This document shows positions 331-56,756 of a DNA stretch of 64,000 nt, in pieces. Both the position numbers and the translations under genes were made by a program. The stretch's first letter is position 1. Every line of letters begins with the position of its first letter. The stretch covers positions 46,433-110,432 of the forward strand of contig JAUWAW010000001.1 in the NCBI GenBank assembly GCA_030601865.1, read 5' to 3'. The DNA is from Candidatus Nealsonbacteria bacterium (GTDB lineage: Bacteria; Patescibacteriota; Minisyncoccia; Minisyncoccales; JAUWAW01). The notes beneath the pieces are model-generated. The model was not told the DNA's origin, searched no databases, and was given only the letters and a program-made list of their open reading frames with translations.

Positions 331-887
331 CAAAGCGATGGAGGGATAGATCTTTGAAAACAAGGTTGTCCCGTTTGATTGTGTTTCAATGTTTTATTCT
401 CTATGAAGGGAGAGAGTGCAATGAAAAGATTAATTGAAGCAGACGAAGTGTCATTGTAGCCTGTGTGGAGTTTACCAACGGCAACAGAAAATATTAGAAT
501 GTACACCAATGGAATGTTTAATCCGAAGGATTAAACACATTGCTGACTGAAATTTTAGGAAAGGATGAGAAATCTTTGCAGAATAAAGGGAAAAGGAGGT
601 TTATTTCTTATTTCGAATATGGTAAAGGTCGACATTATCATCTTTTTTTACGTTCTCTTAAATTTAAGATAAGATGTTACGTTTTAAAGCTTATTGCCAA
701 AATCCTTAATCTTGGCAAACCGTATTGTCGTATATGCTATCATACTGGAATGTATTGGTGTAAATGTAAACCATGGCAAGTTTCGGGCAATGGACCCAAA
801 CTCTGGAGAAGGCATTGTTATATGAAAGGATTTGAAAAGAAATACTAATTTTAGTTTTTTTGAAGAGGAAAAATAGAACCTTTCACC

Positions 888-3900: not shown

Positions 3901-4149
3901 AGAGTAAGGGTGGGCGGCATTATTTCTGGCATTAAAAGGATTATCACTAAAAATGGCAAGCCAATGCTTTTTGTCAACTTGGAAGACCAGACCACTAAAG
4001 TTGAAGTCATTGCTTTTCCGGGGGTTCTGGAGAAAAACCCGAGTGTTTTCCAGGAAAATAAAATTGTTTTTGTTTCGGGCAGAGTAGACAGCCGAGACGG
4101 CGTGCCCAAAATAATTGCGGACGAAGTAGAAGAAATCGTGGAGAAATAA
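955..4149 (+). CDS. dnaE: DNA polymerase III alpha subunit
   Basis: 1064-aa ORF; PHP motif HLHVHSHYSLLDG at the N-terminus, pol III alpha core, C-terminal OB region. The real start is probably the ATG at 976 (MKFTHLHVHS). Confidence 0.95.
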   Translation: MIQYNNCMKFTHLHVHSHYSLLDGLPKIDQLLDYVKELGMDSVALTDHGVLYGAVEFYKKAKGKGIKPIIGCEVYVAYERMQQKRPNIDDKRYHLVLLAKNEQGYKNLVKLVTKAHLEGFYYKPRIDHQLLEKHASGLIGLSGCLQGRIPKLVIAGKTEEAEKLALYYQKIFGQDSFYLEIQDHPNLKEQQKVNNALIDFSKKLNIPLVATNDCHYLKSEDAEAQDILMLINTGSKQDDPERLTMKADDFSMRTPQQMSEFCAKQGAAEAVENTEKISQMCNFEFKLGETKLPFFETPNDKTPDEYLKELCYKGLGEKKKQIEKKKQAIERLEYELSVIKETGFAPYFLIVQDFVNWAKGERIVVGPGRGSDASSLVCYLLNITEVDPLKHGLLFERFLNKDRISMPDFDLDFTDRRRDEVIDYVAQKYGRDRVAQIITFGTMAARAVIRDVGRAMGVSYAFCDQTAKMIPFGSTLDECLEKVSEFRQLYDTDEQARKLIDSAKKLEGVARHASTHACGVVISKEPLTELVPLQHPTQNDENIVTQYEMHAIEDLGLLKIDLLGLKNLAIIEDTLAKIYVIHKKNIDISKIPFDDKKTFRIFQQAQTTGVFQCESSGFKRYLKQLKPTVFDDIVVMISLYRPGPIELIPEYIARKHKRKKIEYIHPSLKPVLEATYGLPVFQEQIMQIARTLAGFSLSEADVLRKAIGKKIKDLLEAQREKFIQGCIKKNISQGIAEKVFQWIEPHARYSFNKAHGTAYGMIAYQTAYLKAHYPLELMASVLTSEKTDVERVAFLIEECKDMGVEVLPPDINESYRHFSVVPEENKIRFGLLAIKNVGSNVVEAIVKERKERGIFKSVEDFISRISARDLNKRSLESLIKAGAFDKLAERKQLLFNLEKLLEWGRETQKTKTNGQKGLFDNTTYTATLVLEETAPASKKEKLEWEKELLGLFVTSHPLEEFKHIFAQKAISLQKISDGFINKRVRVGGIISGIKRIITKNGKPMLFVNLEDQTTKVEVIAFPGVLEKNPSVFQENKIVFVSGRVDSRDGVPKIIADEVEEIVEK

Positions 4150-4167
4150 CCCTACGAATTACGAATT
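4150..4167. repeat. TACGAAT-array element (family 5), short copy between dnaE stop and thrS start
   Basis: ccc-tacgaat-tacgaat-t immediately after the dnaE stop codon. Confidence 0.7.
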
Positions 4168-4174
4168 TACAAAT

Positions 4175-5914
4175 ATGTCAAACAAAAAAATAGAAAAAAT
4201 TCGGCATTCGCTGGCGCATATTATGGCTGCAACGGTTAAGGAGCTTTATCCAAGAGTCAAATTCGGTATTGGCCCGGCCATTGAAAATGGTTTTTATTAT
4301 GATTTTGATTTAACCTCTCCTCTGTTCCCTGAAAATCTGCCAAAAATTGAAAAGAAAATACGGGAATTGATTAGAAAAGATTTAAAGTTTGAGAAAGAAA
4401 GTATTTCAAGAACAGAAGCCAAAAAAATATTTAAAAACCAACCATATAAATTCGAATTAATTAAAGAACTAAAAGGGCTACAAGTTTCATGTTTCAAGTT
4501 TCATGATTTCGTTGACTTGTGCAAGGGGCCTCATATTAAATCAACCAAAGAAATAAATCCCAAGGCGTTCAAATTAACTAAAATCGCCGGGGCTTACTGG
4601 CGGGGTGATGAGAAAAACCCCATGCTCACCCGCATTTATGGCGTGGCCTTTGAAACAGAAAAAGAATTAAAAGATTATTTAAAACAAGTTGAAGAAGCAG
4701 AACAAAGAGACCATCGTGTTTTGGGTGAAAAATTGGACTTATTTCATATTGATAAAGCCATCGGCCCAGGCCTTATCCTTTGGCATCCCAAAGGCGCACT
4801 CCTCAAAAAAATCATTGAGGATTATGTGCTTTCAGAATACCTAAAAGCCGGCTATCAACTGGTTAACACTCCCCATATTGCTAAAATTTCCATTTGGGAT
4901 ACCTCGGGCCACACCAAATTCTACAAAGACAGTATGTTCCCAGTCATGCAACTCAAGGAAATGGGCAAGGTAATCCCTTATCAGCTCAAACCAATGAATT
5001 GCCCTTTTCATATCTTGATTTATCAAAAAGAAATTAGAAGTTATCGCCAATTACCTATCCGATACACTGAATTAGGCACGGTTTATAGATACGAGAAATC
5101 AGGCACCTTGCACGGGCTGACGCGAGTGCGTGGTTTTACTCAAGATGATGCTCATATTTTCTGCACTCCTGAACAACTTGGTAAAGAGTTAGTGTCTGTT
5201 TTAAAACTAACTTTAAAAATATTTAAAACTTTTGGTTTTAAAGAATTTGAGATATGTCTTTCCACCCGGCCAAAAAAATATGTTGGCACTTTAAAAAGTT
5301 GGCAGAAAGCCACCAATGCTTTAAAATATGCCTTGGAAAAAGTAAAACTTGCCTATCAAATTGACCCTGGCGAGGGCGTTTTCTATGGACCCAAGATTGA
5401 CATTAAAATCAAAGATTCTTTGGGAAGGGCTTGGCAGTGTACCACCATCCAAGTTGATTTCAATTTACCTGAGGGATTTAATTTAAGCTATATTGATAAA
5501 AAAGGCAAAAAGAAACAGCCCATTATGATTCACCGAGCGCTTCTGGGTTCTTTGGAAAGATTTATTGGCGTTTTGATTGAGCATTATGCAGGCGCTTTCC
5601 CTTTGTGGCTGGCTCCAGAACAGACTTGGATTATTCCCGTAGGTACCCGTCACAAAAAATACGCCCGTGAAACATGCAAACAACTCTACGAGAACAGTTC
5701 TCGTAGTATTGTAAAAGACGCCAATGAAACCGTTTCCAAAAAAATAAGGGAAGGGGAAATCCAAAAAATTCCCTATCTCTTGGTTGTCGGCGACAAAGAA
5801 ATAAAAAGAAAATCAGTTAGGGTCCGCCAGCGAGGCAAGGGCGATATTGGAAAAATGAAACTGAATAAATTTATAGAAAAATGCCAGAATTGTCTTTGCA
5901 AACGCAAAAATTAA
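4175..5914 (+). CDS. thrS: Threonine--tRNA ligase (no N-terminal TGS domain)
   Basis: 579 aa; HSLAHIMA editing-domain motif, class II core (YRYEKSGTLHGLTRVRGFTQDDAHIF), C-terminal anticodon-binding domain. Confidence 0.93.
   Translation: MSNKKIEKIRHSLAHIMAATVKELYPRVKFGIGPAIENGFYYDFDLTSPLFPENLPKIEKKIRELIRKDLKFEKESISRTEAKKIFKNQPYKFELIKELKGLQVSCFKFHDFVDLCKGPHIKSTKEINPKAFKLTKIAGAYWRGDEKNPMLTRIYGVAFETEKELKDYLKQVEEAEQRDHRVLGEKLDLFHIDKAIGPGLILWHPKGALLKKIIEDYVLSEYLKAGYQLVNTPHIAKISIWDTSGHTKFYKDSMFPVMQLKEMGKVIPYQLKPMNCPFHILIYQKEIRSYRQLPIRYTELGTVYRYEKSGTLHGLTRVRGFTQDDAHIFCTPEQLGKELVSVLKLTLKIFKTFGFKEFEICLSTRPKKYVGTLKSWQKATNALKYALEKVKLAYQIDPGEGVFYGPKIDIKIKDSLGRAWQCTTIQVDFNLPEGFNLSYIDKKGKKKQPIMIHRALLGSLERFIGVLIEHYAGAFPLWLAPEQTWIIPVGTRHKKYARETCKQLYENSSRSIVKDANETVSKKIREGEIQKIPYLLVVGDKEIKRKSVRVRQRGKGDIGKMKLNKFIEKCQNCLCKRKN
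5687..5705. repeat. Family-4 palindrome TACGAGAACAGTTCTCGTA inside thrS
   Basis: Perfect 9+1+9 palindrome. The 25-nt string ctacgagaacagttctcgtagtatt is identical to the one in mnmA at 40876-40900. Confidence 0.85.
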
Positions 5915-7460: not shown

Positions 7461-9419
7461 ATGAAATATCATATTGTTACTTACGGCTGTCAAATGAATA
7501 AAAGCGACAGTGAGAGGATTGCTACACTATTAGAGAATAAAGGATATCAGCCCGCGAAAGATATTTCTCGGGCTGATTTGGTAGTAATTAATATGTGTTC
7601 TGTTCGCCAAAAACCGGTAGACAAAGCCAAAAACCAGATTGCTCGTCTCCGCAATAAAAAAATTATTTTAATAGGTTGTATTTTAGATGCTGACAAAAAA
7701 GAATTTGCAAAAATGGGAGTTAAAATCTGGAGAGGTCTGACCTCTGCAAAACTTGCAGAGGTCAGACCTCTAACTGGTTTTGTGCCCATTATGAGAGGGT
7801 GTAATAATTTTTGTTCATACTGTGTTGTGCCTTACACTCGAGGGCCGGAAAAATATCGCAGTCAAAAAGAAATTATTGGCGAAGTTAAACATCTTCTTAA
7901 AAAAGGAATTAAAGAAATTACTTTGCTGGGTCAAAATGTCGATAGTTATAAATATAAACCACCACGGGATCCTTCGGCTTCGCCTCAGGATGATAACTCC
8001 GTTGTCAATTTTGTAAAATTACTTCAGAAAATTACTGTCTTGCCCGGCGATTTTAAGATTAAATTTATTACCAATCATCCCAAAGATTTTTCTGATGAAC
8101 TAATCGATGAGATTGCTCGGAATGACAAAATAATCAAATATGTTCACTTGCCAGTGCAGTCAGGTGATAATAAAATCTTAAAAAAGATGAACCGCAATTA
8201 TACTGGTGAGCAGTATTTGGCTTTGATTAAAAAAATTAAAAAGAAAATACCTAATGTTGACCTAACAACTGATATTATTGTTGGCTTTCCCGGTGAAACC
8301 GAAAAACAATTCCAAAAGACAGTTAACTTGTTTAAAAAGATTAAATTTGCTACCGCCTACATTGCCAAATACAGCCCCCGCCCCGGCACCGTTGCCTATA
8401 AACTAAAAGACAACGTCCCCCTCGCAGAAAAAAAGCGCCGAGAACAAACCCTGAGAAAATTAATACCTCCTACCCGTCATTCTGAGGCGAAGCCGAAGAA
8501 TCTCAACCAACGAGATCCTTCGGCTCGCTATCACTCGCCTCAGGATGACAATAACAAACTTATTGTTATTTTGGGGCCGACGGCTGTAGGGAAAACAGAG
8601 TTTTCAATAAAGCTGGCCAAAAAATTTAACGGCCAGGTGATTTCGGCTGACTCCCGTCAGGTCTATAAAGGAATGAACATCGGAACAGGTAAAATAAGCA
8701 AAAAAGAAAGGCAAGGTATCCCCCACTATCTTTTAGATATTGCCTCCCCCAGAAGAAGGTTTTCGGTTGCCCAATATCAAAAAAAGGCGATTGAAGTCAT
8801 AAACAAAATTTTAAAAAAGAAAAAAATCCCGTTTTTAGTAGGCGGAAGTCCTTTTTATATTTACTCTATTGTTGAGGGTTGGGTTTTTCCCAAAATGAAA
8901 GCCGACTTAAAACTGAGAAAAGAATTGGAAAAAAAATCAATTGAAGAACTTTTCAACATATTAAAAAAACTCTCTCCGCAGAGAGCCAAAACAATTGAAA
9001 AGAAAAACAAAAGACGGCTTATCAGGGCAATTGAGATTGCCAAGGCTTTAGGCAAAGTTTTGCCTCTGAAAAAAAATCCCCAATTTGATTGTTTGTTAAT
9101 AGGGATTAAACTAACAAAAGAAAAATTACAAAAAAAAGTTTCCCAAAGAGTTGATAAAATGATTGAATTAGGTCTTGAAAAAGAAGTAAAAAAATTATCT
9201 GAAAAATACGGCTTCAATTCTGTGTTGGGAGAAAGTATTGGCTACCAAGAATGGGAAAAAAGCGGCAGCCGGGCTGCCGCTGAAATAGCAGAGGAAATAA
9301 AATTTAATACTTATCATCTTGCCAAGCGGCAAATGACCTGGTTCAAAAAAGATAAAAGAATCCTTTGGGTTGAGAATTATAAACAAGCGGAAAATTTGAT
9401 CAAAAATTTCTTGGTATAA
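7461..9419 (+). CDS. miaB-miaA: Fusion protein: MiaB-like methylthiotransferase (UPF0004 + radical SAM, no TRAM domain) fused to tRNA dimethylallyltransferase MiaA
   Basis: N-terminus MKYHIVTYGCQMNKSDSE and CNNFCSYCVVPYTRG (MiaB). From about residue 375, LIVILGPTAVGKTEFSIKLAKKFNGQVISADSRQVYKGMNIGTGK (MiaA P-loop). One uninterrupted 652-aa ORF. Confidence 0.85.
   Translation: MKYHIVTYGCQMNKSDSERIATLLENKGYQPAKDISRADLVVINMCSVRQKPVDKAKNQIARLRNKKIILIGCILDADKKEFAKMGVKIWRGLTSAKLAEVRPLTGFVPIMRGCNNFCSYCVVPYTRGPEKYRSQKEIIGEVKHLLKKGIKEITLLGQNVDSYKYKPPRDPSASPQDDNSVVNFVKLLQKITVLPGDFKIKFITNHPKDFSDELIDEIARNDKIIKYVHLPVQSGDNKILKKMNRNYTGEQYLALIKKIKKKIPNVDLTTDIIVGFPGETEKQFQKTVNLFKKIKFATAYIAKYSPRPGTVAYKLKDNVPLAEKKRREQTLRKLIPPTRHSEAKPKNLNQRDPSARYHSPQDDNNKLIVILGPTAVGKTEFSIKLAKKFNGQVISADSRQVYKGMNIGTGKISKKERQGIPHYLLDIASPRRRFSVAQYQKKAIEVINKILKKKKIPFLVGGSPFYIYSIVEGWVFPKMKADLKLRKELEKKSIEELFNILKKLSPQRAKTIEKKNKRRLIRAIEIAKALGKVLPLKKNPQFDCLLIGIKLTKEKLQKKVSQRVDKMIELGLEKEVKKLSEKYGFNSVLGESIGYQEWEKSGSRAAAEIAEEIKFNTYHLAKRQMTWFKKDKRILWVENYKQAENLIKNFLV
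7732..7770. repeat. Perfect 18-bp-arm palindrome in frame inside the miaB part
   Basis: gaggtctgacctctgcaa-aac-ttgcagaggtcagacctc; encodes RGLTSAKLAEVRPL. The antisense frame reads the near-identical RGLTSASFAEVRPL. Confidence 0.9.
7966..7994. repeat. Family-1 element copy in frame inside the miaB radical-SAM part
   Basis: gggatccttcggcttcgcctcaggatgat; encodes RDPSASPQDD. Confidence 0.85.
8476..8549. repeat. Inverted pair of family-1 elements forming the MiaB-MiaA linker
   Basis: gtcattctgaggcgaagccgaagaatctc ... gagatccttcggctcgctatcactcgcctcaggatgac; encodes RHSEAKPKNLNQRDPSARYHSPQDD. Confidence 0.85.
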
Positions 9420-15948: not shown

Positions 15949-15954
15949 AATGAA

Positions 15955-16090
15955 ATAACCAATAACCAAGATACAATAACCAAACAAATCTCAATAACCA
16001 ATAATCAATAACCAATTATATAATGTTTGGTTATTGGTGTTTGAAGATTGGTTATTGTTTGGTTATTGTTTCTTGTATCTTGGTGATTGA
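15955..16090. repeat. ~130-bp long-hairpin repeat (AATAACCAA arm / TTGGTTATT arm), copy 1
   Basis: About 90 percent identical by eye to 56757-56883 and in the same orientation; lies between the nusG stop and the rplK start. Confidence 0.85.
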
Positions 16091-16093
16091 ACA

Positions 16094-16639
16094 TTATATC
16101 TTCTTAATTTGCAGCGAATCCAACTCAACCGGGGTGTCTCGGCCAAACATATTGACTAATACTTTCACTTTGCCTTTCTCGGCGTCAATTTCTGAGACCT
16201 TGCCATCAAAGTCTTTAAAGGGACCGTCAGTAATCTTGACCGGGTCGCCAATTTCAAATTCAATTTTATACTGCGGTTCTTCCACACCCATTCTTTTTTT
16301 CAAAATGTCAATTTCTTCTTTTGACACGGGGACCGGGGTTGTACCAGCCCCCACGAATCCAGTTACATTGGGCGTATTTCTGACCACATACCAGGAATCA
16401 TCAGTGACAATCATTTCCACTAAGACATAACCAGGGTAAATCTTTTCCTCCACTACCTTTCTTTTACCATCTTTAATCTTAATCTTTTTTTCTTTGGGCA
16501 CTAAAACATTAAAAATTTTATCGTCCATATCCAAGGATTCAATCCTTTGTTTTAGATTTTTGGCCACTGCATCCTCATATCCAGAATAAGTGTGAATAAC
16601 ATACCAGTTTTTCTCTTGCGGTAGTCTTTGTTTAGGCAT
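16094..16639 (-). CDS. nusG: Transcription termination/antitermination factor NusG
   Basis: 181 aa; NGN start WYVIHTYSGYE and C-terminal KOW domain (GDPVKITDGPFKDFDGKV). Confidence 0.93.
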   Translation of the reverse strand: MPKQRLPQEKNWYVIHTYSGYEDAVAKNLKQRIESLDMDDKIFNVLVPKEKKIKIKDGKRKVVEEKIYPGYVLVEMIVTDDSWYVVRNTPNVTGFVGAGTTPVPVSKEEIDILKKRMGVEEPQYKIEFEIGDPVKITDGPFKDFDGKVSEIDAEKGKVKVLVNMFGRDTPVELDSLQIKKI

Positions 16640-16652
16640 ATTTGAGCTCTAA

Positions 16653-16710
16653 TTCAAGATTATATATTTATACATTAGCGAATCAAGGTTCTAGCGGAGC
16701 GTTAGCGAGG
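16653..16710 (-). promoter_or_regulatory. Repeated promoter-like cassette, copy upstream of nusG
   Basis: Minus strand AGAACC..AGAACC-TTGATT(16686-16681)-N16-TATAAT(16664-16659)-CTTGAATT, 13 nt before the nusG ATG. Confidence 0.6.
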
Positions 16711-16717
16711 CAGGTTC

Positions 16718-16918
16718 TTATAATACAAACTTGTTCAGTAAAGTGCTAAATAAAAAGTCCACGCTCCCCAAAAAAATGGCCACAGCAATTGAGGCGCCAA
16801 TAACAATCAAAGTGTATCTCAAAGTCTCCTGACGAGTAGGCCAGTTAACTTTTTTAATCTCTAGTCGCACTTCTTTCAAAAAAGTGACAATTTTTTTAGG
16901 AAAGGCGCTAATAGCCAT
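16718..16918 (-). CDS. secE: Preprotein translocase subunit SecE
   Basis: 66 aa; EVRLEIKKVNWPTRQET followed by a single TM helix; canonical position upstream of nusG. Confidence 0.88.
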   Translation of the reverse strand: MAISAFPKKIVTFLKEVRLEIKKVNWPTRQETLRYTLIVIGASIAVAIFLGSVDFLFSTLLNKFVL

Positions 16919-16923
16919 GTTCT

Positions 16924-16992
16924 TAATTCAAGATTATATATTTATATATTAGCGAATCAAGGTTCTGACGAGCGTTAGCGAGGCAGGTTCTT
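16924..16992 (-). promoter_or_regulatory. Repeated promoter-like cassette, copy upstream of secE
   Basis: TTGATT(16960-16955)-N16-TATAAT(16938-16933)-CTTGAATT; near-identical to 16653-16710 and related to 62704-62829. Confidence 0.6.
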
Positions 16993-21181: not shown

Positions 21182-21417
21182 TTTGCATTTTGTATTTTTA
21201 ATTTAGTTATAGCAGCTATCTCTCTGGCAATGCCCAGATGACAAAAACAATCATGCGCTCTATTGGGCAGAACATCAATATCCAAAATCCAATCTTTGCC
21301 TTTTTTCTCAACGCTCTCCACCTCAAAACTATGCATGGTCAAAAGCTGAGCCAAGTCCTTTGGTTTAGGCAGTTTCTTATTAAAAAAAGATTGTAGCCAA
21401 TTGTAAGAGAAAATCAT
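21178..21417 (-). CDS. pheT: Phenylalanine--tRNA ligase beta subunit, separate N-terminal segment (B1-like)
   Basis: 79 aa; MIFSYNWLQSFF...DIDVLPNRAHDCFCHLGIAREIAA matches the PheT N-terminus; no OB tRNA-binding domain. Confidence 0.8.
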   Translation of the reverse strand: MIFSYNWLQSFFNKKLPKPKDLAQLLTMHSFEVESVEKKGKDWILDIDVLPNRAHDCFCHLGIAREIAAITKLKIQNAK

Positions 21418-21419
21418 AA

Positions 21420-21457
21420 CCCTACGAATTACGAATTATTACGAATATACGAATAAT
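21420..21457. repeat. TACGAAT-array element (family 5), 4 heptamers, directly upstream of the pheT N segment
   Basis: ccc-tacgaat-tacgaat-tat-tacgaat-a-tacgaat-aat. Confidence 0.8.
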
Positions 21458-21460
21458 TAA

Positions 21461-26770: not shown

Positions 26771-27403
26771 ATGGAACTCAAAAAACCTGACATCCGTTAT
26801 CTTAATAATATGAAAGAGGTACTTTGTGACCAGGAGTGGGCAAAAGATGCTCCTAATCTTGAGCTTTATTATATGTATCGCTACACAAAACGCGACGGCG
26901 CTTTGAGATATGACATTACTGAAATCCCATTTCAAATGTTAGGCAAAGAATATGTTAAAACAAAAGGCCACAGTCACGCAGGCGCCGAAACCTACGAGGT
27001 TTTACAAGGCAAAGCTATCTTCCTTCTCCAAAAATGTAACGAGAAAAAACCTGACGAGAAGACTTCTCGTCAGGTTGAGGATGTTTATGCGGTTGAGGTA
27101 AAAAGTGGTGATAAGGTATTTATTCCTGCTCATTACGGACATGTAACCATTAATCCCGGACCCGAAGACCTCAAAATGGCAAATTGGGTTTCCGACGCAT
27201 TCAAGTCAGATTATTCCCTTTATCTTGAAAAACAAGGCGCTTGCTATTACTGTATTAAAGGAAATCGGCCCCCATCACTCTGCAAGAGTGAGGGGGTAAA
27301 CTGGATTAAAAACGAAAATTATGGTAAAGTGCCAGAACTAAGATTTGAAAAGCCAAACAAAAATATTCCTGAAGATTTAAAGAAAGCTTTGATGGGAGAA
27401 TAA
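26771..27403 (+). CDS. pgi: Cupin-type (archaeal-type) glucose-6-phosphate isomerase
   Basis: 210 aa; TKGHSHAGAETYEVLQGKAIFLLQ and SGDKVFIPAHYGHVTINPG match Pyrococcus-type PGI as recalled. Confidence 0.8.
   Translation: MELKKPDIRYLNNMKEVLCDQEWAKDAPNLELYYMYRYTKRDGALRYDITEIPFQMLGKEYVKTKGHSHAGAETYEVLQGKAIFLLQKCNEKKPDEKTSRQVEDVYAVEVKSGDKVFIPAHYGHVTINPGPEDLKMANWVSDAFKSDYSLYLEKQGACYYCIKGNRPPSLCKSEGVNWIKNENYGKVPELRFEKPNKNIPEDLKKALMGE
27048..27076. repeat. 14-bp-arm palindrome in frame inside cupin PGI
   Basis: aacctgacgagaag-a-cttctcgtcaggtt; encodes KPDEKTSRQV in a loop about 12 aa longer than in Pyrococcus PGI. Confidence 0.85.
27269..27296. repeat. Family-8 palindrome (CCCCC..CAC..CTGCAA..GTG..GGGGG) in frame inside cupin PGI
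   Basis: cccccatcactc-tgcaa-gagtgaggggg; encodes RPPSLCKSEG; related to the yraN copy at 54282. Confidence 0.8.
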
Positions 27404-30350: not shown

Positions 30351-30842
30351 ATGAAAGGAGAAGGTATAATGGCTGATTGGACTGATTTTATCAAAGAACA
30401 AGAAAAAGCAATACAAGAATTCGTTGGCGAAGAGAAAGTCATCGTGGCTCTCTCTGGGTGTATGGACAGCTCACTAACTACTATGTTAGTCCATCATGCT
30501 CTAAAGAAAGACCAAGTTTCGATGATCACCATCGACGACGGACTCAGAAGGAAAGGCGAACCTCAATGGGTAGTCAACACCTTTGCCAGCTTAGGCATTA
30601 AAGTAGGAACTCTAATAGTGAATCCTAAGTGGCTATTTTCTTCCTTGGGTCAAGCCAGGAATCCAGAAGTGAAAAGAGCAAGGTTTCGCTCTTTCTTTTA
30701 CAAAACCCTTGCTAGTCACGCTGAAAAAACAGGAGCTAAGGTTCTCTTTCAGGGAACCAATAGGGCCGATGTCCAGGAGACGGTTGGTGGTGTTAAACTC
30801 CAACATAAAAAAGTAAATCATTCCCAATCCTCCTTAGGGTAA
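30351..30842 (+). CDS. GMP synthase ATP-pyrophosphatase-domain-like protein, truncated (possible gene remnant)
   Basis: PP-loop VALSGCMDSS, DDGLRRKGE and NPEVKRARFRSFF..FQGTNRADVQET resemble the GuaA C-terminal half. No GATase domain or dimerisation domain. Likely start is the ATG at 30370 after AAAGGAG. Confidence 0.55.
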   Translation: MKGEGIMADWTDFIKEQEKAIQEFVGEEKVIVALSGCMDSSLTTMLVHHALKKDQVSMITIDDGLRRKGEPQWVVNTFASLGIKVGTLIVNPKWLFSSLGQARNPEVKRARFRSFFYKTLASHAEKTGAKVLFQGTNRADVQETVGGVKLQHKKVNHSQSSLG

Positions 30843-30903
30843 TATGATAAATTTCTCCATTGACAAATTCGTATCTTCGTTGAGGCATAAAGTTAGTTAA
30901 CAG

Positions 30904-30950
30904 CGTTCCGATCCCTGTAAAATTTACGGGGATCGGAACGTTGTTTTTTT
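30904..30950 (+). terminator. Intrinsic terminator
   Basis: 13-bp stem cgttccgatccct/ggggatcggaacg followed by ttgttttttt. Confidence 0.75.
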
Positions 30951-33254: not shown

Positions 33255-34229
33255 ATGTCGTTTTCAATAGGCATTATTGGTCTGCCCAATGCGGGCAAGT
33301 CCACCCTATTTAAGGCCTTAACCAAAAAAGAGGTTGAAATCGCTCCCTATGCTTTTACCACTCGAGACCCCAATATTGGTATTGTTTCTGTTCCCGATAT
33401 AAGGTTAAAAAAAATTGCTGAAAAGATAAAGCCCCAAAAAATAACCCCCACTTTTATTAAATTTGTAGATATCGCTGGGTTGGTAAAAGGTGCCCATAAG
33501 GGAGAGGGTCTAGGCAACCAATTTTTGGCACATATTAGAAACTGCGATGCTGTGGTGGAGGTGGTGCGAGCTTTTGAAAACGCTGAAATAGAACATGTTG
33601 AGGGCTCTGTTGAGCCAAAAAGAGACATTGACATAATTAAAACAGAACTCTTGATGAAAGATTTGGAAATTTTGGAAAAATGCGGTCTTTTTCCAAAAAT
33701 TAAAGAGCAAGTATCTCAAGACAAACTAATTTCAGAAATGAATCTGTCGGAAGAAGAAAAACTTGCCATCAAAGAGTATCAATTTTTAACTGAAAAGCCC
33801 AGAGTTTTTGTTTTTAATGTATCGGGAGGCCATCCCGATAGGAGCGACGAAACGCTTTCTCTGGATCTCAAGTTAGAAGAAGAACTTTCTGAACTCTCAG
33901 AAGCAGAAGCAGAAGAATTAGGCATGGACTCCCAACTTGATAAATTAATCACCGCCTGCTACAATATCCTTGACCTGATTACTTTTTTTACTGTCACCGG
34001 GGGGAAAGAGACCAGGGCCTGGACTCTAAAAAAAGATTCAAAAGTGTTTGAAGCAGCTGGCTACGTCCATTCTGATTTTGCGGAAAAATTTATCAAAGCC
34101 GAAGTCATTCCCTGGCAACAATTAGTAGAAGCTCAATCCTGGACAGGGGCCCGTGAAAAAGGCTGGCTCAGAACAGAAGGAAAAGAGTATATAGTCAAGG
34201 ACGGAGATGTAATTGAATTCAAAATATAA
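33255..34229 (+). CDS. ychF: Ribosome-binding ATPase YchF (short form)
   Basis: 324 aa; GIIGLPNAGKSTLFKALT P-loop and C-terminal TGS-like domain (EGKEYIVKDGDVIEFK). Confidence 0.9.
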   Translation: MSFSIGIIGLPNAGKSTLFKALTKKEVEIAPYAFTTRDPNIGIVSVPDIRLKKIAEKIKPQKITPTFIKFVDIAGLVKGAHKGEGLGNQFLAHIRNCDAVVEVVRAFENAEIEHVEGSVEPKRDIDIIKTELLMKDLEILEKCGLFPKIKEQVSQDKLISEMNLSEEEKLAIKEYQFLTEKPRVFVFNVSGGHPDRSDETLSLDLKLEEELSELSEAEAEELGMDSQLDKLITACYNILDLITFFTVTGGKETRAWTLKKDSKVFEAAGYVHSDFAEKFIKAEVIPWQQLVEAQSWTGAREKGWLRTEGKEYIVKDGDVIEFKI

Positions 34230-34316
34230 CCCTACGAATTACGAATTCATACGAATATACCAATAATTATCCCTTATTAAAAATTCGTATATTCGTAAGT
34301 ATTCGTAATTCGTAGG
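34230..34316. repeat. Inverted pair of TACGAAT arrays (family 5) forming a ~27-bp-stem hairpin in the rpsF leader
   Basis: ccctacgaattacgaattcatacgaatata ... tatattcgtaagtattcgtaattcgtagg; the right end supplies the GGAG 5 nt before the rpsF ATG. Confidence 0.85.
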
Positions 34317-34321
34317 AGAAT

Positions 34322-35273
<952 letters not shown>

Positions 35274-36470: not shown

Positions 36471-38984
36471 TCATAATAGCACTTTAAAGGTCTCGGGGTC
36501 AAGCTCTACTCTATCTCCTTTTTTTAGCTCGCCTGATAAGATGGCTTTAGCTAAAACGTTTTCTACTTTATCTTGGATAACCCTTCTCATTTCTCTTGCT
36601 CCAAAAGTAGGAGAATAGCCAAGCTTCACTATTTTCTCTTTGAGGGCATCGGTAATAATAAAGTCAATGTCTTTTCCTTTGAGGTTTTTCTTTAAGTCCT
36701 GAAACATCAGCTGGGCAATATCTAAAAGGTTATCTTTAGTTAAGGGCCTAAAAACAACCACCGCATCAAACCGATTAATAAATTCCGGTCGGAAGATTTC
36801 CTTCTCAAAAAGTTCATCTAAAAGTTTCTGTTTAACTTGAGACCACTCGGTTTTCTCTCGGAGAGCTTTTAAGATAATTTTATAACCAGCATTAGAAGTA
36901 GCAATAATGATTGAGTTCTGAAAACTTACTTTTCTGCCCTGGCCATCGGTTAAATACCCTTCGTCTAAAACCTGTAAAAACAAATTTAAGATGTTGGGAT
37001 GGGCTTTTTCAATTTCATCCAACAGTATTAGGGAAAAGGGATTTTCCCTAACCGGGGTAGTCAAAAGCCCTTCTTGGCCCAATTCTCCAATCAAACGAGG
37101 TATATCTTTTATGGCTTGGAACTCTGACATATCCAGTCGAATCATCCGTTTCTCTGACCTAAAATAAATTTCAGCTAAAACCTTAGAGGTTTCAGTTTTG
37201 CCCACACCAGTGGGGCCTAAGAATAAAAAGCTACCCATGGGACCCTTTCTAATGGTAATCTTAGCCCTGGCTCTTCTCAACGCCTCAGAAATTTCTCTAA
37301 CCGCTTCATCCTGATTAATGATTCTTTTGTGAATTAATTCTTCTAAATTAAGCAAAAGTTTTTTCTCTTTACCCGCTAATTCTCCTACCGGCACCTCTAC
37401 TTTTTCAGCAATAACTTTGGCCACATGACTGGGCAAAACAACAGGGTCTTTGGTTGAGGTGGCCACAAATGCTGCCACCTCATCTAAAAGGTCTATTGCT
37501 TTTTTAGGAAAAGGAAGGTTGGGCAAGTACTGGGCAGCTAAAGAAATTATCTCGCGGAGGGCAGGCTGTGAAATTAATACTTTATGGGTTTTTTCAAGGC
37601 GGAGACATAAACTTTCTAAAAGTTGGAGGGTTTCTTCTTGAGGAATCTCGGAGACCTCTACTTTTTCAAAAAGATTCAAAATAGAAGGATTCTGCTCAAT
37701 TTTTTGGTGCAGACCAGTATAAGTAGTAATGGCCATGATTTGGAATTGAGGAAGATGTAAATAAGAACCTAAAATCCCAGAAATATCAACCACGCCTGGC
37801 CGAGCTTCCCCACCAACATAATTGTGGAATTCATCAATGACCAAAATAATGTTGCCGGCAGAAACCGTTTCCTGGAAAATCTTCTCTAAATTCTCTTCTA
37901 CTTGCTCTGGGTCTGGCAAACGGGCTAAAAAAGAAGGCATATCTAATTCTACTATCCTTTTATAATTTATCGGCTCTGAACTCTCACCCAAAAAACTCTT
38001 TAAAGCGAGGGCCTGAACAATACTTCTTCTGCCGGTGCCTGCTTCCCCCACCAATAAAACATTATTGATTTTTGTGCGAGACAAAATTGTCTCCACCATC
38101 TTTATTTCTTCTTGATGGCCAACAACCTCGGGCAATCTCTTTTTGACAACATCGGTTAAATCCAGGGAATATTTATCTAAGGTTAAGGTATAACCGGCGG
38201 CCCATTCTTTAGCCAAGGTTCCCATTCTGGCTAAATTTTTGGCAGACCAGAATTTTTTTCTTTCTTTTACCTTCCACTCCAGGTTCTCCAACCACCAAGC
38301 CAAATTTTCAATATCTTCTACCTTAAGATTATTTTCAATTAAAATCTTTTGGAAAATAGAATTGTGTTGAGCCAGAGCAACTATTAAATCGGTTATCTCC
38401 ACTCTCACTCCTCCTCTTTCTTGAGCTCTTTTTAAGGCCCCCAGAATTGTCTTCTGGAAACACTCCGAGAAAGTTGCTCTGTCGGGGATGTTAGCCCCGA
38501 CATTTTTTAAGTGTCCTTCTAATGTTTTTTTAATTTTTTCTAAACTTAAAAGGGCCCTTTGAAAGACAAAATTTAATTTTTGGTTATCTATTAAAAGAAA
38601 ATAGAAAAGAAAGTTGGAATTAGTTTCACACTTTTTTCTTCTGGCCCATTTTATTGATTTTTGAACCGCCTTGGCTGTTTCAAAATTTAAAAACTCTGCC
38701 AAATTCTCTTTGTTTTTAATGGCCGGCTTCTTCAGCTTAAACTTGAAAAACGCCTCAATAAGCACGATTAAACCAGCCAAACAAAAGACAAAAATAGATA
38801 CACCCAAAAAACTGCTAAAAGCGAAATTAAAAAAATTGCCCAGGATACACAAGGAAAGAAATATGACAAAAAATACACTCAAAATCTTGCGCAGTTTTCT
38901 AAGGGTGCCCAAACAGAGAATTCTTTGCCATCTTAACGCCTTATAAATACCTGTTTGTTTTAGATTAAAATTAAACCCAGGCAT
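36471..38984 (-). CDS. Membrane-anchored two-ring Clp/Hsp100-family AAA+ ATPase (no M-domain or ClpP-docking loop seen; D1 Walker A Lys replaced by Arg)
   Basis: 837 aa; N-terminal TM helices; D1 GEAGTGRRS plus ILVIDEFH; D2 GPTGVGKTE plus LILLDEIEKAH; no IGF/IGL tripeptide seen. Confidence 0.8.
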   Translation of the reverse strand: MPGFNFNLKQTGIYKALRWQRILCLGTLRKLRKILSVFFVIFLSLCILGNFFNFAFSSFLGVSIFVFCLAGLIVLIEAFFKFKLKKPAIKNKENLAEFLNFETAKAVQKSIKWARRKKCETNSNFLFYFLLIDNQKLNFVFQRALLSLEKIKKTLEGHLKNVGANIPDRATFSECFQKTILGALKRAQERGGVRVEITDLIVALAQHNSIFQKILIENNLKVEDIENLAWWLENLEWKVKERKKFWSAKNLARMGTLAKEWAAGYTLTLDKYSLDLTDVVKKRLPEVVGHQEEIKMVETILSRTKINNVLLVGEAGTGRRSIVQALALKSFLGESSEPINYKRIVELDMPSFLARLPDPEQVEENLEKIFQETVSAGNIILVIDEFHNYVGGEARPGVVDISGILGSYLHLPQFQIMAITTYTGLHQKIEQNPSILNLFEKVEVSEIPQEETLQLLESLCLRLEKTHKVLISQPALREIISLAAQYLPNLPFPKKAIDLLDEVAAFVATSTKDPVVLPSHVAKVIAEKVEVPVGELAGKEKKLLLNLEELIHKRIINQDEAVREISEALRRARAKITIRKGPMGSFLFLGPTGVGKTETSKVLAEIYFRSEKRMIRLDMSEFQAIKDIPRLIGELGQEGLLTTPVRENPFSLILLDEIEKAHPNILNLFLQVLDEGYLTDGQGRKVSFQNSIIIATSNAGYKIILKALREKTEWSQVKQKLLDELFEKEIFRPEFINRFDAVVVFRPLTKDNLLDIAQLMFQDLKKNLKGKDIDFIITDALKEKIVKLGYSPTFGAREMRRVIQDKVENVLAKAILSGELKKGDRVELDPETFKVLL

Positions 38985-39328: not shown

Positions 39329-40485
39329 AATTGCTTAGTTATTTTATTGTAGCACATTTGAATTAATTTCTTAATATCTATATTTTTCTCTGCTCTTTCT
39401 ACTTCTTTTAGATTGGCTTTGGTTGTTGGATGCTTTGGTAAGAATCTAACGCAGCAGTCCTGGTCCGGCAAAATGGAAATTTCAAAAGTATTGATTTGTC
39501 TTGCCATTTTAATTATCTCTTGTTTGTCCTGACCAAGCAAAGGCCTTAAAATTGGCAGGTCTGTTACTTGCTCAATAACTTTTATATTCTCTAAAGTTTG
39601 CGAAGCCACTTGGCCAATACTCTCTCCGGTAACAACGGCCAGACATTTTTCTTTTTTGGCGACTTCTTGAGCAATTCTGAACATCATCCGACGATACAAA
39701 ATCACTCTTAATTTGGCCGGGGTTTTAAGTAGAATTTCCTTCTGGATACCGGCAAAAGGCGCTAAATAAAGTTTTGAACCCTGCTGAAATTTGTCTAAAA
39801 CCTTGACTATTTTCTGGACTTTTTCAATTGATGCCTTGTTTGTGTAAGGATAGGCGTGAAAGTGCAGGAAAATTATGGCCACTCCCCTTTTGAGCATTAA
39901 AAAAGCAGCCACTGGAGAGTCAATGCCACCTGATAAAAGAGTCACTGCTTTTCCGCTGACGTTGACGGGCAAGCCACCCTGCCCCTTTATTCTTTCTGTA
40001 TATAAAAAGGCAAACTTCTCTACTATTTCAATAAATAAAGTAATATCCGGGTTCTCCAAATCAACTTTTTTCTTTAATTTCTTTAAAATTTCTGCCCCCA
40101 CTTGTTCATTAATCTCTGTTGAGGTTAATAGAAACTCTTTTTTTGACCGTTGCGTGGCAATTTTAAAAGTTTTAAATTTTTGAGTTTTCAAAACTTCAAG
40201 CGCTTTCTTTTTTATTTCGCCAATTTTTTGTGGGCAGTCTACGGCAAAAGCAAAATAAGCAATGCCAAAGACATTTTTTAATACCCCGGCAATTTTTTTT
40301 CCCTCTCCACTGCCCTTCTCACTTATTTTAACCAAAAGCCGTCCTGAAATCCTTTTAACAAATTCAAAAAACTCTGGCCTTAGCGCCTTTTTAATGTTCT
40401 CCACCAACTTTTCCTCAAAAAACCGCCGATTTTTCCCTTTCAACCCAATCTCTGCGTAGTGACAAATAATATACTCCATTAGCAT
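39322..40485 (-). CDS. thiI: tRNA 4-thiouridine synthase ThiI (THUMP + PP-loop, no rhodanese domain)
   Basis: 387 aa; LLSGGIDSPVAAFLM PP-loop and N-terminal ferredoxin-like/THUMP part. Confidence 0.88.
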   Translation of the reverse strand: MLMEYIICHYAEIGLKGKNRRFFEEKLVENIKKALRPEFFEFVKRISGRLLVKISEKGSGEGKKIAGVLKNVFGIAYFAFAVDCPQKIGEIKKKALEVLKTQKFKTFKIATQRSKKEFLLTSTEINEQVGAEILKKLKKKVDLENPDITLFIEIVEKFAFLYTERIKGQGGLPVNVSGKAVTLLSGGIDSPVAAFLMLKRGVAIIFLHFHAYPYTNKASIEKVQKIVKVLDKFQQGSKLYLAPFAGIQKEILLKTPAKLRVILYRRMMFRIAQEVAKKEKCLAVVTGESIGQVASQTLENIKVIEQVTDLPILRPLLGQDKQEIIKMARQINTFEISILPDQDCCVRFLPKHPTTKANLKEVERAEKNIDIKKLIQMCYNKITKQLC

Positions 40486-40488
40486 ATT

Positions 40489-41640
40489 TTAACATATAAT
40501 TATTCCGCCGCCTAAAAGTTTTTCTCCTTTATAGAAAACCACTGATTGACCCGGGGTGACGGCGCGTTGGGGCTTGGCAAAAATTACTTTACAGCGCCTG
40601 CCCGCTATTTTTTTTATTGCTTCAACTTCAATTACTGGCGAACGATACCTTATTTTCGCTTTTATCCCAACTATTGGAGTTGAACTCCAATAGTTTGAAA
40701 TCCAGTTAACATCTTTGACAATCAATTCTTTTTTTTCCAAATGTTTTTCGTTCTTGGTGACAATTAAAGCATTATTTTTGACATCCTTGTCTAAAACATA
40801 GTATGGACCTCCGGCAAGCCCTATCCCCTTTCGCTGACCAATAGTATAAAACCACAACCCCTGATGCTCGCCAATACTACGAGAACAGTTCTCGTAGTAT
40901 TCTAAGATGGGGCCAGGATTTGTTTTAAGATGTTTTCTCAAAAATTCCTCTGTTGTTTTTTTAATAAAGCAAACTTCTTGAGATTCTCTGGCTTCAAGTA
41001 CCGGCAAGTCAAACTCCTTGGCCATCTGTCTTACTTGTCTTTTGGTGTAATCCCCAATGGGAAACAAAATGTGTTTTAATTGTTTCTGGCCCAACTGCCA
41101 TAAAAAATATGATTGATCTTTTTCTTTATCTTTTGCTCTTACCAATGTGTAATTTTGTATTTTTGTGTCAGAATTCTGCGACCTGCCCGTAATGCTTCGC
41201 ATAGCGATACAGGCGGGTCGCAGGATTTTGACACAGTTTAGATCTTTATTTGTATTTTCACATTTACGCGCATAGTGGCCAGTGGCAATAAAATCTGCGT
41301 CCAAGCCCAAGGCTTTTTTCAATAAAAGTCCAAATTTTATTTCTTTGTTGCAGACCACACAAGGGTTGGGGGTTCTGCCTCTTTTATATTCTTTCAAAAA
41401 ATAATTAATGATTTTTCTCTTAAACTCTTTTCTTAAATCCAAAACCAAAAATGGAATGCCTAATTTTTTAGCAATTTTTCTGACTCTTCTCTCACTTTCT
41501 CTGAAATGAGACGACTCATAAAGTTTCATAAAAACTCCTGTTACATTAAAATTAGCCCTTTTAAGAAGGGCTGCTGCTACCGAACTATCCACGCCACCGG
41601 ACATCGCCACTATTACCTTATTTTTTCTTTTTGCTTTCAT
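40489..41640 (-). CDS. mnmA: tRNA-specific 2-thiouridylase MnmA
   Basis: 383 aa; VAMSGGVDSSVAA, NPCVVCN, ATGHYAR, KDQSYFLW, CFI; carries two palindromic elements in frame. Confidence 0.92.
   Translation of the reverse strand: MKAKRKNKVIVAMSGGVDSSVAAALLKRANFNVTGVFMKLYESSHFRESERRVRKIAKKLGIPFLVLDLRKEFKRKIINYFLKEYKRGRTPNPCVVCNKEIKFGLLLKKALGLDADFIATGHYARKCENTNKDLNCVKILRPACIAMRSITGRSQNSDTKIQNYTLVRAKDKEKDQSYFLWQLGQKQLKHILFPIGDYTKRQVRQMAKEFDLPVLEARESQEVCFIKKTTEEFLRKHLKTNPGPILEYYENCSRSIGEHQGLWFYTIGQRKGIGLAGGPYYVLDKDVKNNALIVTKNEKHLEKKELIVKDVNWISNYWSSTPIVGIKAKIRYRSPVIEVEAIKKIAGRRCKVIFAKPQRAVTPGQSVVFYKGEKLLGGGIIIC
40874..40900. repeat. Family-4 palindrome inside mnmA
   Basis: atactacgagaac-a-gttctcgtagtat; encodes YYENCSRSI (thrS copy encodes YENSSRSI). 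Confidence 0.85.
41164..41235. repeat. Family-2 element (TGTGTCAAAATCCTGCGA/TCGCAGGATTTTGACACA), expanded copy in frame inside mnmA
   Basis: tgtgtcagaattctgcgac-[34-nt insert]-gtcgcaggattttgacaca; 72 bp = 24 codons (CVKILRPACIAMRSITGRSQNSDT). Confidence 0.85.
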
Positions 41641-42007
41641 GGTCCTTGATGGCTGATTTAAGGGCTGTTTCGGCTAATCGGATACAATGAAGTTTTGGTT
41701 TGGGAACTTCGCCCACTTGTTCAGCAATATCGTCAAAAGTAATCTTCTTTGCCTGTTTCAACGTCTTGCCTTCTGCCAAAGCGCAAATCATATCTGAAAT
41801 GGCTATGGCGTGTCCGCATCCGAGCGTTTCAAATTTTGCCTCTTTAATACGTTCTTTTCCATCCTTTTTTTCTACTTTGATATAAATTTTCATCACGTCG
41901 CCACACCTCAAATTTTGGGTATCCCCTACTCCATTTGCATCTTTAATCTTGCCCAAGTGTCTGGGGTGTAAAAAATGCTCCATTATTTTTTTTGAGTAAT
42001 AAACCAT
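41618..42007 (-). CDS. iscU: Fe-S cluster scaffold protein IscU/NifU-like
   Basis: 129 aa; three conserved Cys contexts RCGDVM, LGCGHAIA, KLHCIRLA. Confidence 0.9.
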   Translation of the reverse strand: MVYYSKKIMEHFLHPRHLGKIKDANGVGDTQNLRCGDVMKIYIKVEKKDGKERIKEAKFETLGCGHAIAISDMICALAEGKTLKQAKKITFDDIAEQVGEVPKPKLHCIRLAETALKSAIKDHESKKKK

Positions 42008-42011
42008 AAAA

Positions 42012-43142
42012 TTAATATCTTCCCGAAATCTTTCTCAGCCGTTTTATAACCTCGGGTAAGATTTTTAAAACATAGTCAATTTCCTGTTTTGTCGTATACC
42101 TCCCCAAGGTTAATCTCAAAGAACCATGGGCTTGTTCTGGAGTAAGCCCCAAAGCTAAAAGCACATGAGAGGGCTCTAAGCTTCTTGTAGAACAAGCCGA
42201 GCCAGTGGAGGCGGCAATTCCCTCCTGGTCCAAAGCAATCACCATACTTTCTCCTTCTGCGCCTTCAAAAGTAACATTAACATTGTTGGCAAGGCGATAT
42301 TCTCTTGAGCCATTTAATTTTGAGTTGGGAATTTTTTCTAAGATGCTGTCAATGAGTTTGTCGCGCAGTTCTTGGGTTTTGGGGATGTTGGGGATGTTAG
42401 GGATTTGGCTAATGGCAGTGCCCAAACCAACAATTCCAGCTACGTTCTCGGTGCCAGAGCGCATTCCGTGTTCTTGATTTCCACCATAGATTAAAGGTCT
42501 AATTGAAGTGCCCTTTTTAATATACAAAGCGCCGATTCCTTTGGGTCCGTAAATCTTGTGGGCAGACAAAGTCAAAAGGTCAACACCTAATTTTTGCACA
42601 TCACAATCTAAATAATTTACTGCCTGCACTGCATCAGTATGAAATAGAATTTTTGAGTTTTTTAATAACTTACCAATTTCAGCAATTGGCTGGATACTGC
42701 CGATTTCATTGTTGGCATACATTACAGAAACTAAAACTGTGTTTTCTTTAATGGCTTTCTCAACATCAGAAACTTTAACTATCCCTTCTTTACCTACCGG
42801 CAAATAAGTAACTTCTACTCCTTCCTTTTCTAATGCTTCACAAGGTTCAAAAACTGCGTGATGCTCAATTTTGGTTGTAATGATATGTGAAGGACTTATT
42901 CCAAAAATGGCTAAGTTGTTTGCCTCGGTGGCTGAGCCGGTAAAAACAATTTCTGAAGGAGAACAACTCAAAAAACCGGCCACTCTTTCTCTGGCTTTAT
43001 CAACTGCCATTTGAGCTTTTTGACCGAAATTATGAATTGAAGAAGGATTGCCGCATTCCTCTTTCAAATACGGCAACATCTCCTTCAAAACCTTAGGGTC
43101 AACCGGTGTGGTCGCCGCGTAATCAAGATAAATTGGCTTCAT
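42012..43142 (-). CDS. iscS: Cysteine desulfurase (IscS/NifS family)
   Basis: 376 aa; PLP lysine SAHKIYGPKG and active-site loop STGSACS. Confidence 0.92.
   Translation of the reverse strand: MKPIYLDYAATTPVDPKVLKEMLPYLKEECGNPSSIHNFGQKAQMAVDKARERVAGFLSCSPSEIVFTGSATEANNLAIFGISPSHIITTKIEHHAVFEPCEALEKEGVEVTYLPVGKEGIVKVSDVEKAIKENTVLVSVMYANNEIGSIQPIAEIGKLLKNSKILFHTDAVQAVNYLDCDVQKLGVDLLTLSAHKIYGPKGIGALYIKKGTSIRPLIYGGNQEHGMRSGTENVAGIVGLGTAISQIPNIPNIPKTQELRDKLIDSILEKIPNSKLNGSREYRLANNVNVTFEGAEGESMVIALDQEGIAASTGSACSTRSLEPSHVLLALGLTPEQAHGSLRLTLGRYTTKQEIDYVLKILPEVIKRLRKISGRY
42381..42407. repeat. 9-bp tandem repeat x3 inside iscS
   Basis: ggggatgtt-ggggatgtt-agggatttg; encodes IPN-IPN-IPK. Confidence 0.8.
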
Positions 43143-46350: not shown

Positions 46351-46950
46351 TTAGTCTAACACTGCCTCCACGGCAATTCTGTAAAGGTCTTTACCCGGAG
46401 GCCAGCAACTTAATAAGATTAACACGGACTTAGAGTTTGTCAACCCGGAAGGAAGCTCCTCTCCTCGGTCAAGGAAAAACTTGTTGGTCACCCGGTAAAC
46501 ATATTGACGGTTATTAAAACAAACATAAATTTCATCTCCTTCAGCTAACTTATTCAAATCAGTAAAAATTCTATCATAATTGATATCAGGCCAGCCCTCA
46601 GGTGCGCTGTGGCCTAAAATTATTGCTCTACCCTGCTCTCCGGGCAAAGCGGAATCCGGGTAATGCAGAACTCCTTCTTTTAGATATTTTTGAAAATCTT
46701 TGTTGTCAGTGCTTTCGGTAAAAACAATGGGGGCTTCCTCCTCAATTTTAGGGATTGAAATAGTATTTTCTAAAACAGTGCTCTCATTTTCAAAGCTATC
46801 AGGTTCTTGTGTTTGCAGCTTGCCATAAATAACTTTGTAATTAAAAAACAAGGAAATCTCCTGCCAATTTATAATCAAAAAAACCACCAGAAATATAAAA
46901 ACAAAGGGTTTCCAGAACTTTTTAATTGCCTCTGTAAAATTCATTAGCAT
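46351..46950 (-). CDS. Sortase family transpeptidase
   Basis: 199 aa; N-terminal TM, AIILGHS (His), LILLSCWPPG (Cys), YRIAVEA (Arg). Confidence 0.75.
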   Translation of the reverse strand: MLMNFTEAIKKFWKPFVFIFLVVFLIINWQEISLFFNYKVIYGKLQTQEPDSFENESTVLENTISIPKIEEEAPIVFTESTDNKDFQKYLKEGVLHYPDSALPGEQGRAIILGHSAPEGWPDINYDRIFTDLNKLAEGDEIYVCFNNRQYVYRVTNKFFLDRGEELPSGLTNSKSVLILLSCWPPGKDLYRIAVEAVLD

Positions 46951-56754: not shown

Positions 56755-56756
56755 AA

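Follow-up and report, generated by a model that had tools for sequence, protein, structure and literature searches.

A palindrome shared by thrS and mnmA of a Candidatus Nealsonbacteria bacterium as a probable copy of a REP-type hairpin repeat associated with RAYT-like transposases

Repetitive extragenic palindromic (REP) elements and the genes of REP-associated tyrosine transposases (RAYTs) together form a layout known as the REPtron (PMC3733652, PMC5581495). Classical REPs carry an unpaired 5' tetranucleotide (PMC6006769, PMC3733652). Intragenic REPs, some of them in tRNA synthetase genes, were catalogued by Di Nocera et al. 2013, who termed the Rickettsia palindromic element (RPE) RPE-1 'longer palindromic insertions' (PMC3733652). 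Here we analyzed a stretch of 64,000 nt (hereafter the window) from a Candidatus Nealsonbacteria bacterium (assembly GCA_030601865.1, contig JAUWAW010000001.1, positions 46,433 to 110,432), in which an identical string of 25 nt is found in the two genes thrS and mnmA. The string is probably a copy of a REP-type hairpin repeat, whose partner enzyme would be a RAYT-like single-strand DNA tyrosine transposase.

The 25-mer CTACGAGAACAGTTCTCGTAGTATT has exactly two exact occurrences in the window, at 5686–5710 in thrS (gene 4175–5914, + strand) and at 40877–40901 in mnmA (gene 40489–41640, − strand). A preliminary description of this DNA had located the first copy correctly and given the second one base too low (40876–40900). 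In 100 dinucleotide-preserving shuffles of the window, no match to the 25-mer with three or fewer mismatches was obtained. The thrS copy encodes YENSSRSI and comprises a perfect 10+1+10 palindrome (5686–5706); of its outer arms, the right one retains TATT and the left one is changed, thereby preserving a conserved Leu codon (CTC). The mnmA copy extends to the full 29 nt, AATACTACGAGAAC-N-GTTCTCGTAGTATT (40873–40901, − strand), forms a perfect 14+1+14 palindrome and encodes (E)YYENCSRSI. Both are read in one common frame, TAC GAG AAC NGT TCT CGT AGT ATT. A variant had also been described right after the lepA stop, and a palindrome with the same core is indeed found there: AAAACTATCGAGAAC-N-GTTCTCGATAGTTTT (46998–47028, − strand) is a 15+1+15 palindrome overlapping the TAA stop codon of lepA (47028–48833, − strand) by one base. 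The core CGAGAAC-N-GTTCTCG is common to all three copies, in the lepA-3' copy adjoined by a T:A pair, and two of the three copies lie inside genes, whereas classical repeats of this kind are expected essentially outside genes. The gene identities were assigned by TIGR00418 for thrS (717 bits), NF001138 for MnmA (401 bits) and TIGR01393 for lepA (717 bits). Window positions 39489–42604 are matched in 3116 of 3116 bases by an independent Logan assembly of run SRR14872663, including the mnmA palindrome, which is thus not an assembler artefact.

The encoded proteins were compared to their orthologues, using the 119 nearest sequences with at most 75% identity for ThrRS and 119 sequences for MnmA. 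The ThrRS orthologues have a variable loop at the site (L-xx-xx-[FLIY]R-xx-[VL]KD), to which the window protein (L-YE-NS-SR-SI-VKD) aligns with equal length, and the conserved arginine of this loop is now supplied by the CGT codon of the palindrome. The closest MnmA orthologues read PGPVVE-QVHYGVNKI-IGRH at the corresponding position, compared to PGPILE-YYENCSRS-IGEH in the window, which is one residue shorter. The palindrome thus replaces rather than lengthens the local protein segment, as the preliminary description had proposed. The YENxSR peptide was absent from the 119 ThrRS and 119 MnmA orthologues, except for the ThrRS of one unrelated lineage that carries a variant palindrome. Its Y, E, N and R codons are minor codons in the window, and the chance of YENSSRSI being written with exactly these codons is about 1e-5. 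The lack of the peptide in orthologues and the use of minor codons thus leave the 25-mer unexplained by protein conservation; the same alignments indicate that the thrS and mnmA copies are lineage-specific. Coincidence, or a convergence in which both proteins needed YENxSRSI, has only the shared frame in its favor and is practically negligible in view of the empty shuffles, the absence of the peptide from orthologues, the low same-codon probability and the recurrence of the 29-mer in dozens of further genomes; for convergence at the protein level, the orthologue alignments and codon usage were the grounds of rejection.

A repeat scan with the core plus TAG, using one genome per species, returned at least 116 loci. 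The multi-copy matches among those listed belong nearly all to Patescibacteria, from several orders (Nealsonbacteria, Portnoybacteria, Minisyncoccales, Parcubacteria and others), with at least 8–12 copies in single related genomes. Their consensus is the 29-mer of the mnmA copy, which recurs exactly in dozens of other genomes. Among the matches listed, 37 of 81 copies (~46%) lie in open reading frames (ORFs) of at least 150 codons, of which 22 are read in frame A (YENxSRS) and 14 in frame C (xRTVLx), the two stop-free readings of the palindrome, and one in the third frame, in which a TAG stop is normally present. Among the genes hosting a copy are pth, pheT, eno, pyrG, thrS, a UvrD-type helicase, a Mur ligase and a GT39-like glycosyltransferase. 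The two genes singled out in the preliminary description are unrelated to each other, as stated there, but not special, since many housekeeping genes in related genomes carry copies. Where sites are orthologous (four genomes for Pth, five for the RAYT-like gene described below), the 21-nt core is invariant, and pairwise identity is 76–97% over the whole 29-mer vs 48–81% in the flanks. Even at these sites the outer arms follow the consensus of their own genome, AACAC..GTGTT in JBARPC01 and AATAC..GTATT elsewhere, which argues for spread or homogenization within genomes. In one Nealsonbacteria assembly (VGKE01), two palindromes make up a longer element, CCGAGAACTGTTCTCGG-CAATATTG-CCGAGAACAGTTCTCGG, found at four of our scan loci and about 17 others on about 21 contigs. 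It resembles a REP doublet (REPIN). On roughly half to two thirds of these contigs the element is no more than about 100 nt away from the contig end, a position that points to it as the cause of assembly breaks.

Five of the related loci have palindrome copies upstream of, inside and downstream of a gene encoding a protein of 232–241 aa, with spacings of ~535 and ~200–220 nt. The protein matches Pfam Y1_Tnp with 45–47 bits (cut-off 23) and contains an HUH motif (MPNHxHLL) and a tyrosine motif (YIHTNP; YIHxNP in the family). The family comprises 2619 proteins at E ≤ 1e-10, all named ones from Patescibacteria, and many of the matches sit on contigs of 1–2 kb. A single-sequence search against solved structures returned nothing for the RAYT-like protein, and an AlphaFold model based on 45 closely related sequences was of low quality (pLDDT 55). 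Flanking palindromes were inspected by eye at about ten loci and scored at 80 further metagenome loci. One palindrome was present at two or more of the upstream, internal and downstream positions in 54 of the 80 loci and at all three in 23, and the upstream and downstream palindromes were the same in 37. The palindromes vary between RAYT-like loci through compensatory changes on both arms: three loci each have three copies of a variant of their own, e.g. GTCGAGAACGGTTCTCGAC or CTGACGAGAAC-N-GTTCTCGTCAG, and one further locus has an unrelated palindrome, CTATCGGGGTYCGACCCCGATAG. A transcription-factor operator and a parS-like site had been considered as well and were dropped when the association with the transposase gene appeared.

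The internal copy, examined in 120 relatives, lies in the linker before the HUH strand. It is read in frame A as E[NK]xSR in 35 of the relatives and in frame C as xR[TN][VF]Lx in 61; ten have a third palindrome type and 14 are unclear. In 46 of the 61 frame C cases, the residues on the two sides match each other in the manner dictated by base-pairing (T..V, P..G, A..A, S..D). Retention in two frames together with this pairing indicates that the constraint on the internal copy acts on the nucleic acid and not on the peptide. The S..D class corresponds to TCGAG..CTCGA, the subtype to which the lepA-3' copy belongs, and the linker of the corresponding RAYT genes encodes SRTVLD. These observations also bear on the idea that the palindrome could be a DNA uptake signal of the competence machinery, of which inverted pairs would lie at the ends of genes and within them, as known from Neisseria or Haemophilus. 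Conservation across species of the clade, positions past stop codons and tolerance in coding frames would all suit such a signal, but neither the bracketing of a transposase gene nor the locus-specific variants are expected of it, and its density is low (three exact cores in 64 kb), which makes this explanation very improbable.

Apart from the three exact cores, the window contains two compensated variants, compared to 0.03 cores expected. The first, AACCTGACGAGAAG-A-CTTCTCGTCAGGTT (27048–27076, + strand), lies inside an ORF encoding a cupin-type glucose-6-phosphate isomerase (26771–27403) and is read in the same frame (GAC GAG AAG ACT TCT CGT CAG), its core having a compensated C/G change relative to the main type. 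The second, CAGGCGAGGAC-N-GTCCTCGCCTG (47976–47998, − strand), lies inside lepA, again in the same frame (GGC GAG GAC TGT CCT CGC CTG), with core changes compensated on both arms. It aligns without gaps to a variable loop of Aquifex LepA, giving a net change of 0. A GQGQGQGQ stretch of LepA (window ~47900–47960) adjoins this intragenic palindrome and includes a four-residue insertion relative to the Aquifex protein.

Net length changes were determined from pairs of genes with and without a copy. No change was found for thrS, an N-terminal ThrRS site, Pth, one site in a YPKF-type gene and the lepA variant. PheT site 2 and the GT39-like gene gained one residue, and MnmA lost one. Gains of six residues were found in a hydrolase and at a second YPKF site, of eight at PheT site 1 and of twelve in PyrG. 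Judged from these alignments, insertion-like and substitution-like outcomes both exist. The many changes of zero or about one residue could be explained by templated conversion at proto-sites, in which another copy serves as the template for overwriting a core-like native sequence, through short-patch gene conversion or through template switching at a replication hairpin, and the transposase gene is another carrier or a mere helper. The recurrence of the thrS site also fits: the thrS of GCA_030612885.1, an unrelated lineage whose ThrRS is 69% identical to the window protein and ranks 70th among its neighbors, has a variant palindrome, CAACGAGAACGGTTCTCGTTG, that falls exactly on the codons occupied in the window (505–511), shares the frame and is read L-NENGSR-C. 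The peptide EN[GN]xR occurs at this site in 11 of 120 ThrRS sequences, ten of them native and the eleventh being this palindrome-bearing one, and where it is written with suitable codons it is at best one base away from the core. Likewise, a PyrG orthologue free of a copy reads DKNSQS where the copy-bearing protein reads ENSSRS. On the other hand, the clear insertions of six to twelve residues (the hydrolase, the YPKF-type gene, PheT site 1 and PyrG) and the MnmA orthologues, which are without a proto-site, speak against conversion, the tight three-copy architecture at most RAYT-like loci would need a separate explanation, and selection after random insertion would lead to the same similarity to the native peptide. 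We consider conversion possible but somewhat doubtful as an alternative to a repeat partnered by a RAYT-like enzyme; the recurrent thrS site would agree with conversion seeded by homology as well as with selection under which the element is tolerated only at places where its peptide resembles the native one. The N-terminal ThrRS loop (codons 75–85) has the appearance of another thrS hot spot, given its two different palindromes, one in GCA_030612885.1 (10223–10245 of that locus) and one at ~6365 of another scan locus (L099).

The lepA-3' copy would form an RNA hairpin with a folding energy of −17.5 kcal/mol, followed by UUUUGGUUUG, and its stem is flanked by an A-tract and a T-tract. From these features the hairpin may terminate transcription; such a role is plausible, and the hairpin could be a bidirectional terminator. 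A consensus terminator scan of the window did not call the site, probably because the flanking A-tract and T-tract pair into the stem. Three nucleotides past the hairpin starts a near-consensus promoter (TTGACA, 17 nt, TG-TATTAT; 46966–46994, − strand) of a sortase-like gene (46351–46950). An Rfam search of the window returned two tRNAs and nothing else. A general terminator role for the family was dropped, since intergenic and coding copies could not be told apart by T-tract enrichment.

Termination belongs to a broader explanation, in which the palindrome would not be a selfish repeat but a site selected by the host, as a binding site of a domesticated RAYT, a terminator or mRNA-stabilizing hairpin, or a signal for replication or chromosome structure. 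RAYTs have been argued to be domesticated and inherited vertically (PMC5581495). The full conservation of the 21-nt core at orthologous sites with flanks of 50–80% identity, the retention of the internal RAYT copy across two reading frames and the equal perfection of intragenic and intergenic copies (mean stems 10.6 and 10.7) are in line with host selection. Against it, T-rich tails in related genomes are not commoner at intergenic than at coding copies, and most orthologues of each host gene are without a copy, so that no gene-specific function is indicated. Host selection appears unlikely.

Several points weigh against the proposal that the string is a repeat with a RAYT-like partner. A profile search of the window in six frames detected no intact RAYT-like gene, only an N-terminal remnant of 31 codons (MPQRRYEFVNGEIYHITLRRIGNDLLF...; 30793–30888, − strand; E = 2e-4), and the source contig has no RAYT among the best 120 of the 2619 family matches. 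A cognate enzyme in this genome is therefore postulated from related genomes. The best NCBIfam match of the RAYT-like protein is REP_Tyr_transpos (REP-associated tyrosine transposase) at 51–53 bits, below the cut-off of 80, and in a profile search against solved structures the match to a Y1 transposase was weak (ISDra2 TnpA, E = 0.018). The repeat differs from classical REPs in being a perfect palindrome with a one-base center and no unpaired GTAG tag: the GTAG in the main variant pairs with CTAC, and it is absent in the variants GTCGAG..CTCGAC and CTGACGAG..CTCGTCAG. Net changes of zero or −1 are unlike the prediction for a simple insertion of 21–29 nt, and neither transposition events nor empty sites nor enzyme activity were observed. 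With regard to the remnant, a near-palindrome of a different type (23+1+23; 30899–30945) ends 10 nt upstream of its ATG, in the position of the upstream REP in a REPtron, and from this arrangement the two together (30793–30945) look like a decayed REPtron.

The mechanism that we propose for a REP-type repeat with a RAYT-like partner would start with extrusion of the palindrome as a hairpin in single-stranded DNA. The RAYT-like enzyme would recognize the hairpin and cut and rejoin there, by which copies would be made or homogenized within the genome; production or maintenance of the copies by this enzyme is likely. A hairpin located at a gene end may act as terminator or 3' stabilizer, possibly so after lepA, and intragenic copies would survive only if they lie in tolerant loops and are read in a stop-free frame (YENxSRS or xRTVLx). 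A variable loop would have been overwritten by a copy in both thrS and mnmA. The suggestion of a conversion or insertion footprint in the preliminary description was thus right in substance, the string being a copy of a dispersed hairpin repeat, and its alternative of an intragenic protein-binding site holds only insofar as the hairpins are the presumed substrates of the RAYT-like enzyme. A bolder version would be that the hairpins overwrite coding stretches already resembling them, that essential proteins of Patescibacteria have been edited repeatedly at the same loops in independent lineages, and that the enzyme gene must carry an internal substrate hairpin, perhaps for self-regulation or for the reaction; we regard this version as improbable.

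Perfect palindromes are abundant in the window, with 72 hairpin matches of stem ≥10 (nested ones counted; ~26 distinct) compared to 1.4 in shuffles. Examples inside ORFs are found at 9261–9281, 33670–33698, 37028–37051, 48470–48492, 49123–49144 and 63543–63570. Two intergenic copies of a perfect palindrome of 36 nt, TGTGTCAAAATCCTGCGATCGCAGGATTTTGACACA, lie just past genes (51610–51645 and 56120–56155), and a 72-nt relative of it lies inside mnmA (41164–41235), as a true insertion of ~20 residues in a variable region. Another mnmA palindrome, AACTATTGGAGTT-G-AACTCCAATAGTT (40669–40695), encodes NYWSSTPIV where GKxPxLPL is usual (+1 residue) and is single-copy in the window. The ORF at 7461–9419 encodes a MiaB-MiaA fusion (UPF0004, Radical_SAM and IPPT), the MiaB part of which contains a 41-nt double palindrome, AGAGGTCTGACCTCT..AGAGGTCAGACCTCT (7731–7771); a related double palindrome is found at a nearby position in the MiaB gene of GCA_030612885.1 (15221–15262 of that locus). 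The repeat AACCCTACGAATTACGAATT... is present three times (4141–4189, 21411–21459 and 34221–34323), with one copy immediately 5' of the thrS start codon and one inverted pair past the ORF at 33255–34229. Furthermore, two intergenic sites separated by 40.8 kb (15953–16109 and 56753–56882) have AT-rich arrays of CAATAACCAA-like units, which make up long imperfect inverted repeats, and a 63-nt repeat, TTAATTCAAGATTATATATTTATACATTAGCGAATCAAGGTTC..., has four copies at two loci (16649–16985 and 62700–62825).

The proposed reading would explain an odd identity between two essential genes by a known class of element, and would add the Candidate Phyla Radiation, a group with tiny genomes commonly considered repeat-poor, to the hosts of REP/RAYT systems. 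If the substitution-type copies come from a templated mechanism, they would represent a natural, short and sequence-specific rewriting of coding DNA by a relative of single-strand transposases. There are also practical consequences: the hairpins appear to break assemblies, as seen from the many RAYT genes on contigs of 1–2 kb and from the Nealsonbacteria assembly in which about a dozen contigs terminate at the repeat, and identical 21–29-mers in unrelated genes can mislead binning and read mapping.

Compared to known systems, the repeat shares with the DNA uptake sequences (DUS) of Neisseria and the uptake signal sequences (USS) of Haemophilus that it is short and conserved, that it sometimes takes the form of inverted pairs, which may be terminators, and that it also occurs in coding frames. 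Those signals are, however, far denser (about one per kb, vs three cores in 64 kb here), are not perfect 29-nt palindromes and have no link to a transposase. Insertion sequences of the IS200/IS605 group (IS608, ISDra2) involve the same superfamily (Pfam Y1_Tnp), and their substrates are subterminal hairpins in single-stranded DNA; in contrast to the tiny dispersed hairpins found here, they move the transposase gene itself, in many copies, inserting beside a fixed tetra- or pentanucleotide. The RPEs are similar in being in-frame palindromic repeats in essential genes, tolerated in surface loops. They are ~100–150 bp long and add tens of residues, and no cognate enzyme is known for them, whereas the unit described here is 21–29 nt, often adds nothing (0 and −1 in the window genes) and has a candidate enzyme. 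The closest resemblance is to the REP/REPIN-RAYT (TnpA-REP) systems of Proteobacteria (E. coli, Pseudomonas and Stenotrophomonas): both consist of a short multi-copy palindrome and a Y1 HUH/Tyr gene bracketed by its own variant, the cognate variants differ between loci, and copies often lie just past stop codons. The present system differs in its host, as no paper connecting RAYTs or REPINs to Patescibacteria was found in the literature searched, and in its longer protein (232–241 aa), which scores below the NCBIfam RAYT cut-off. It also differs in having a third copy within the transposase reading frame, and in that nearly half of the copies lie in frame inside genes, many overwriting instead of adding residues. 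REPs, RAYTs and intragenic REPs are already known (PMC3733652); what would be new are the copy inside the enzyme gene and the coding copies of the substitution type.

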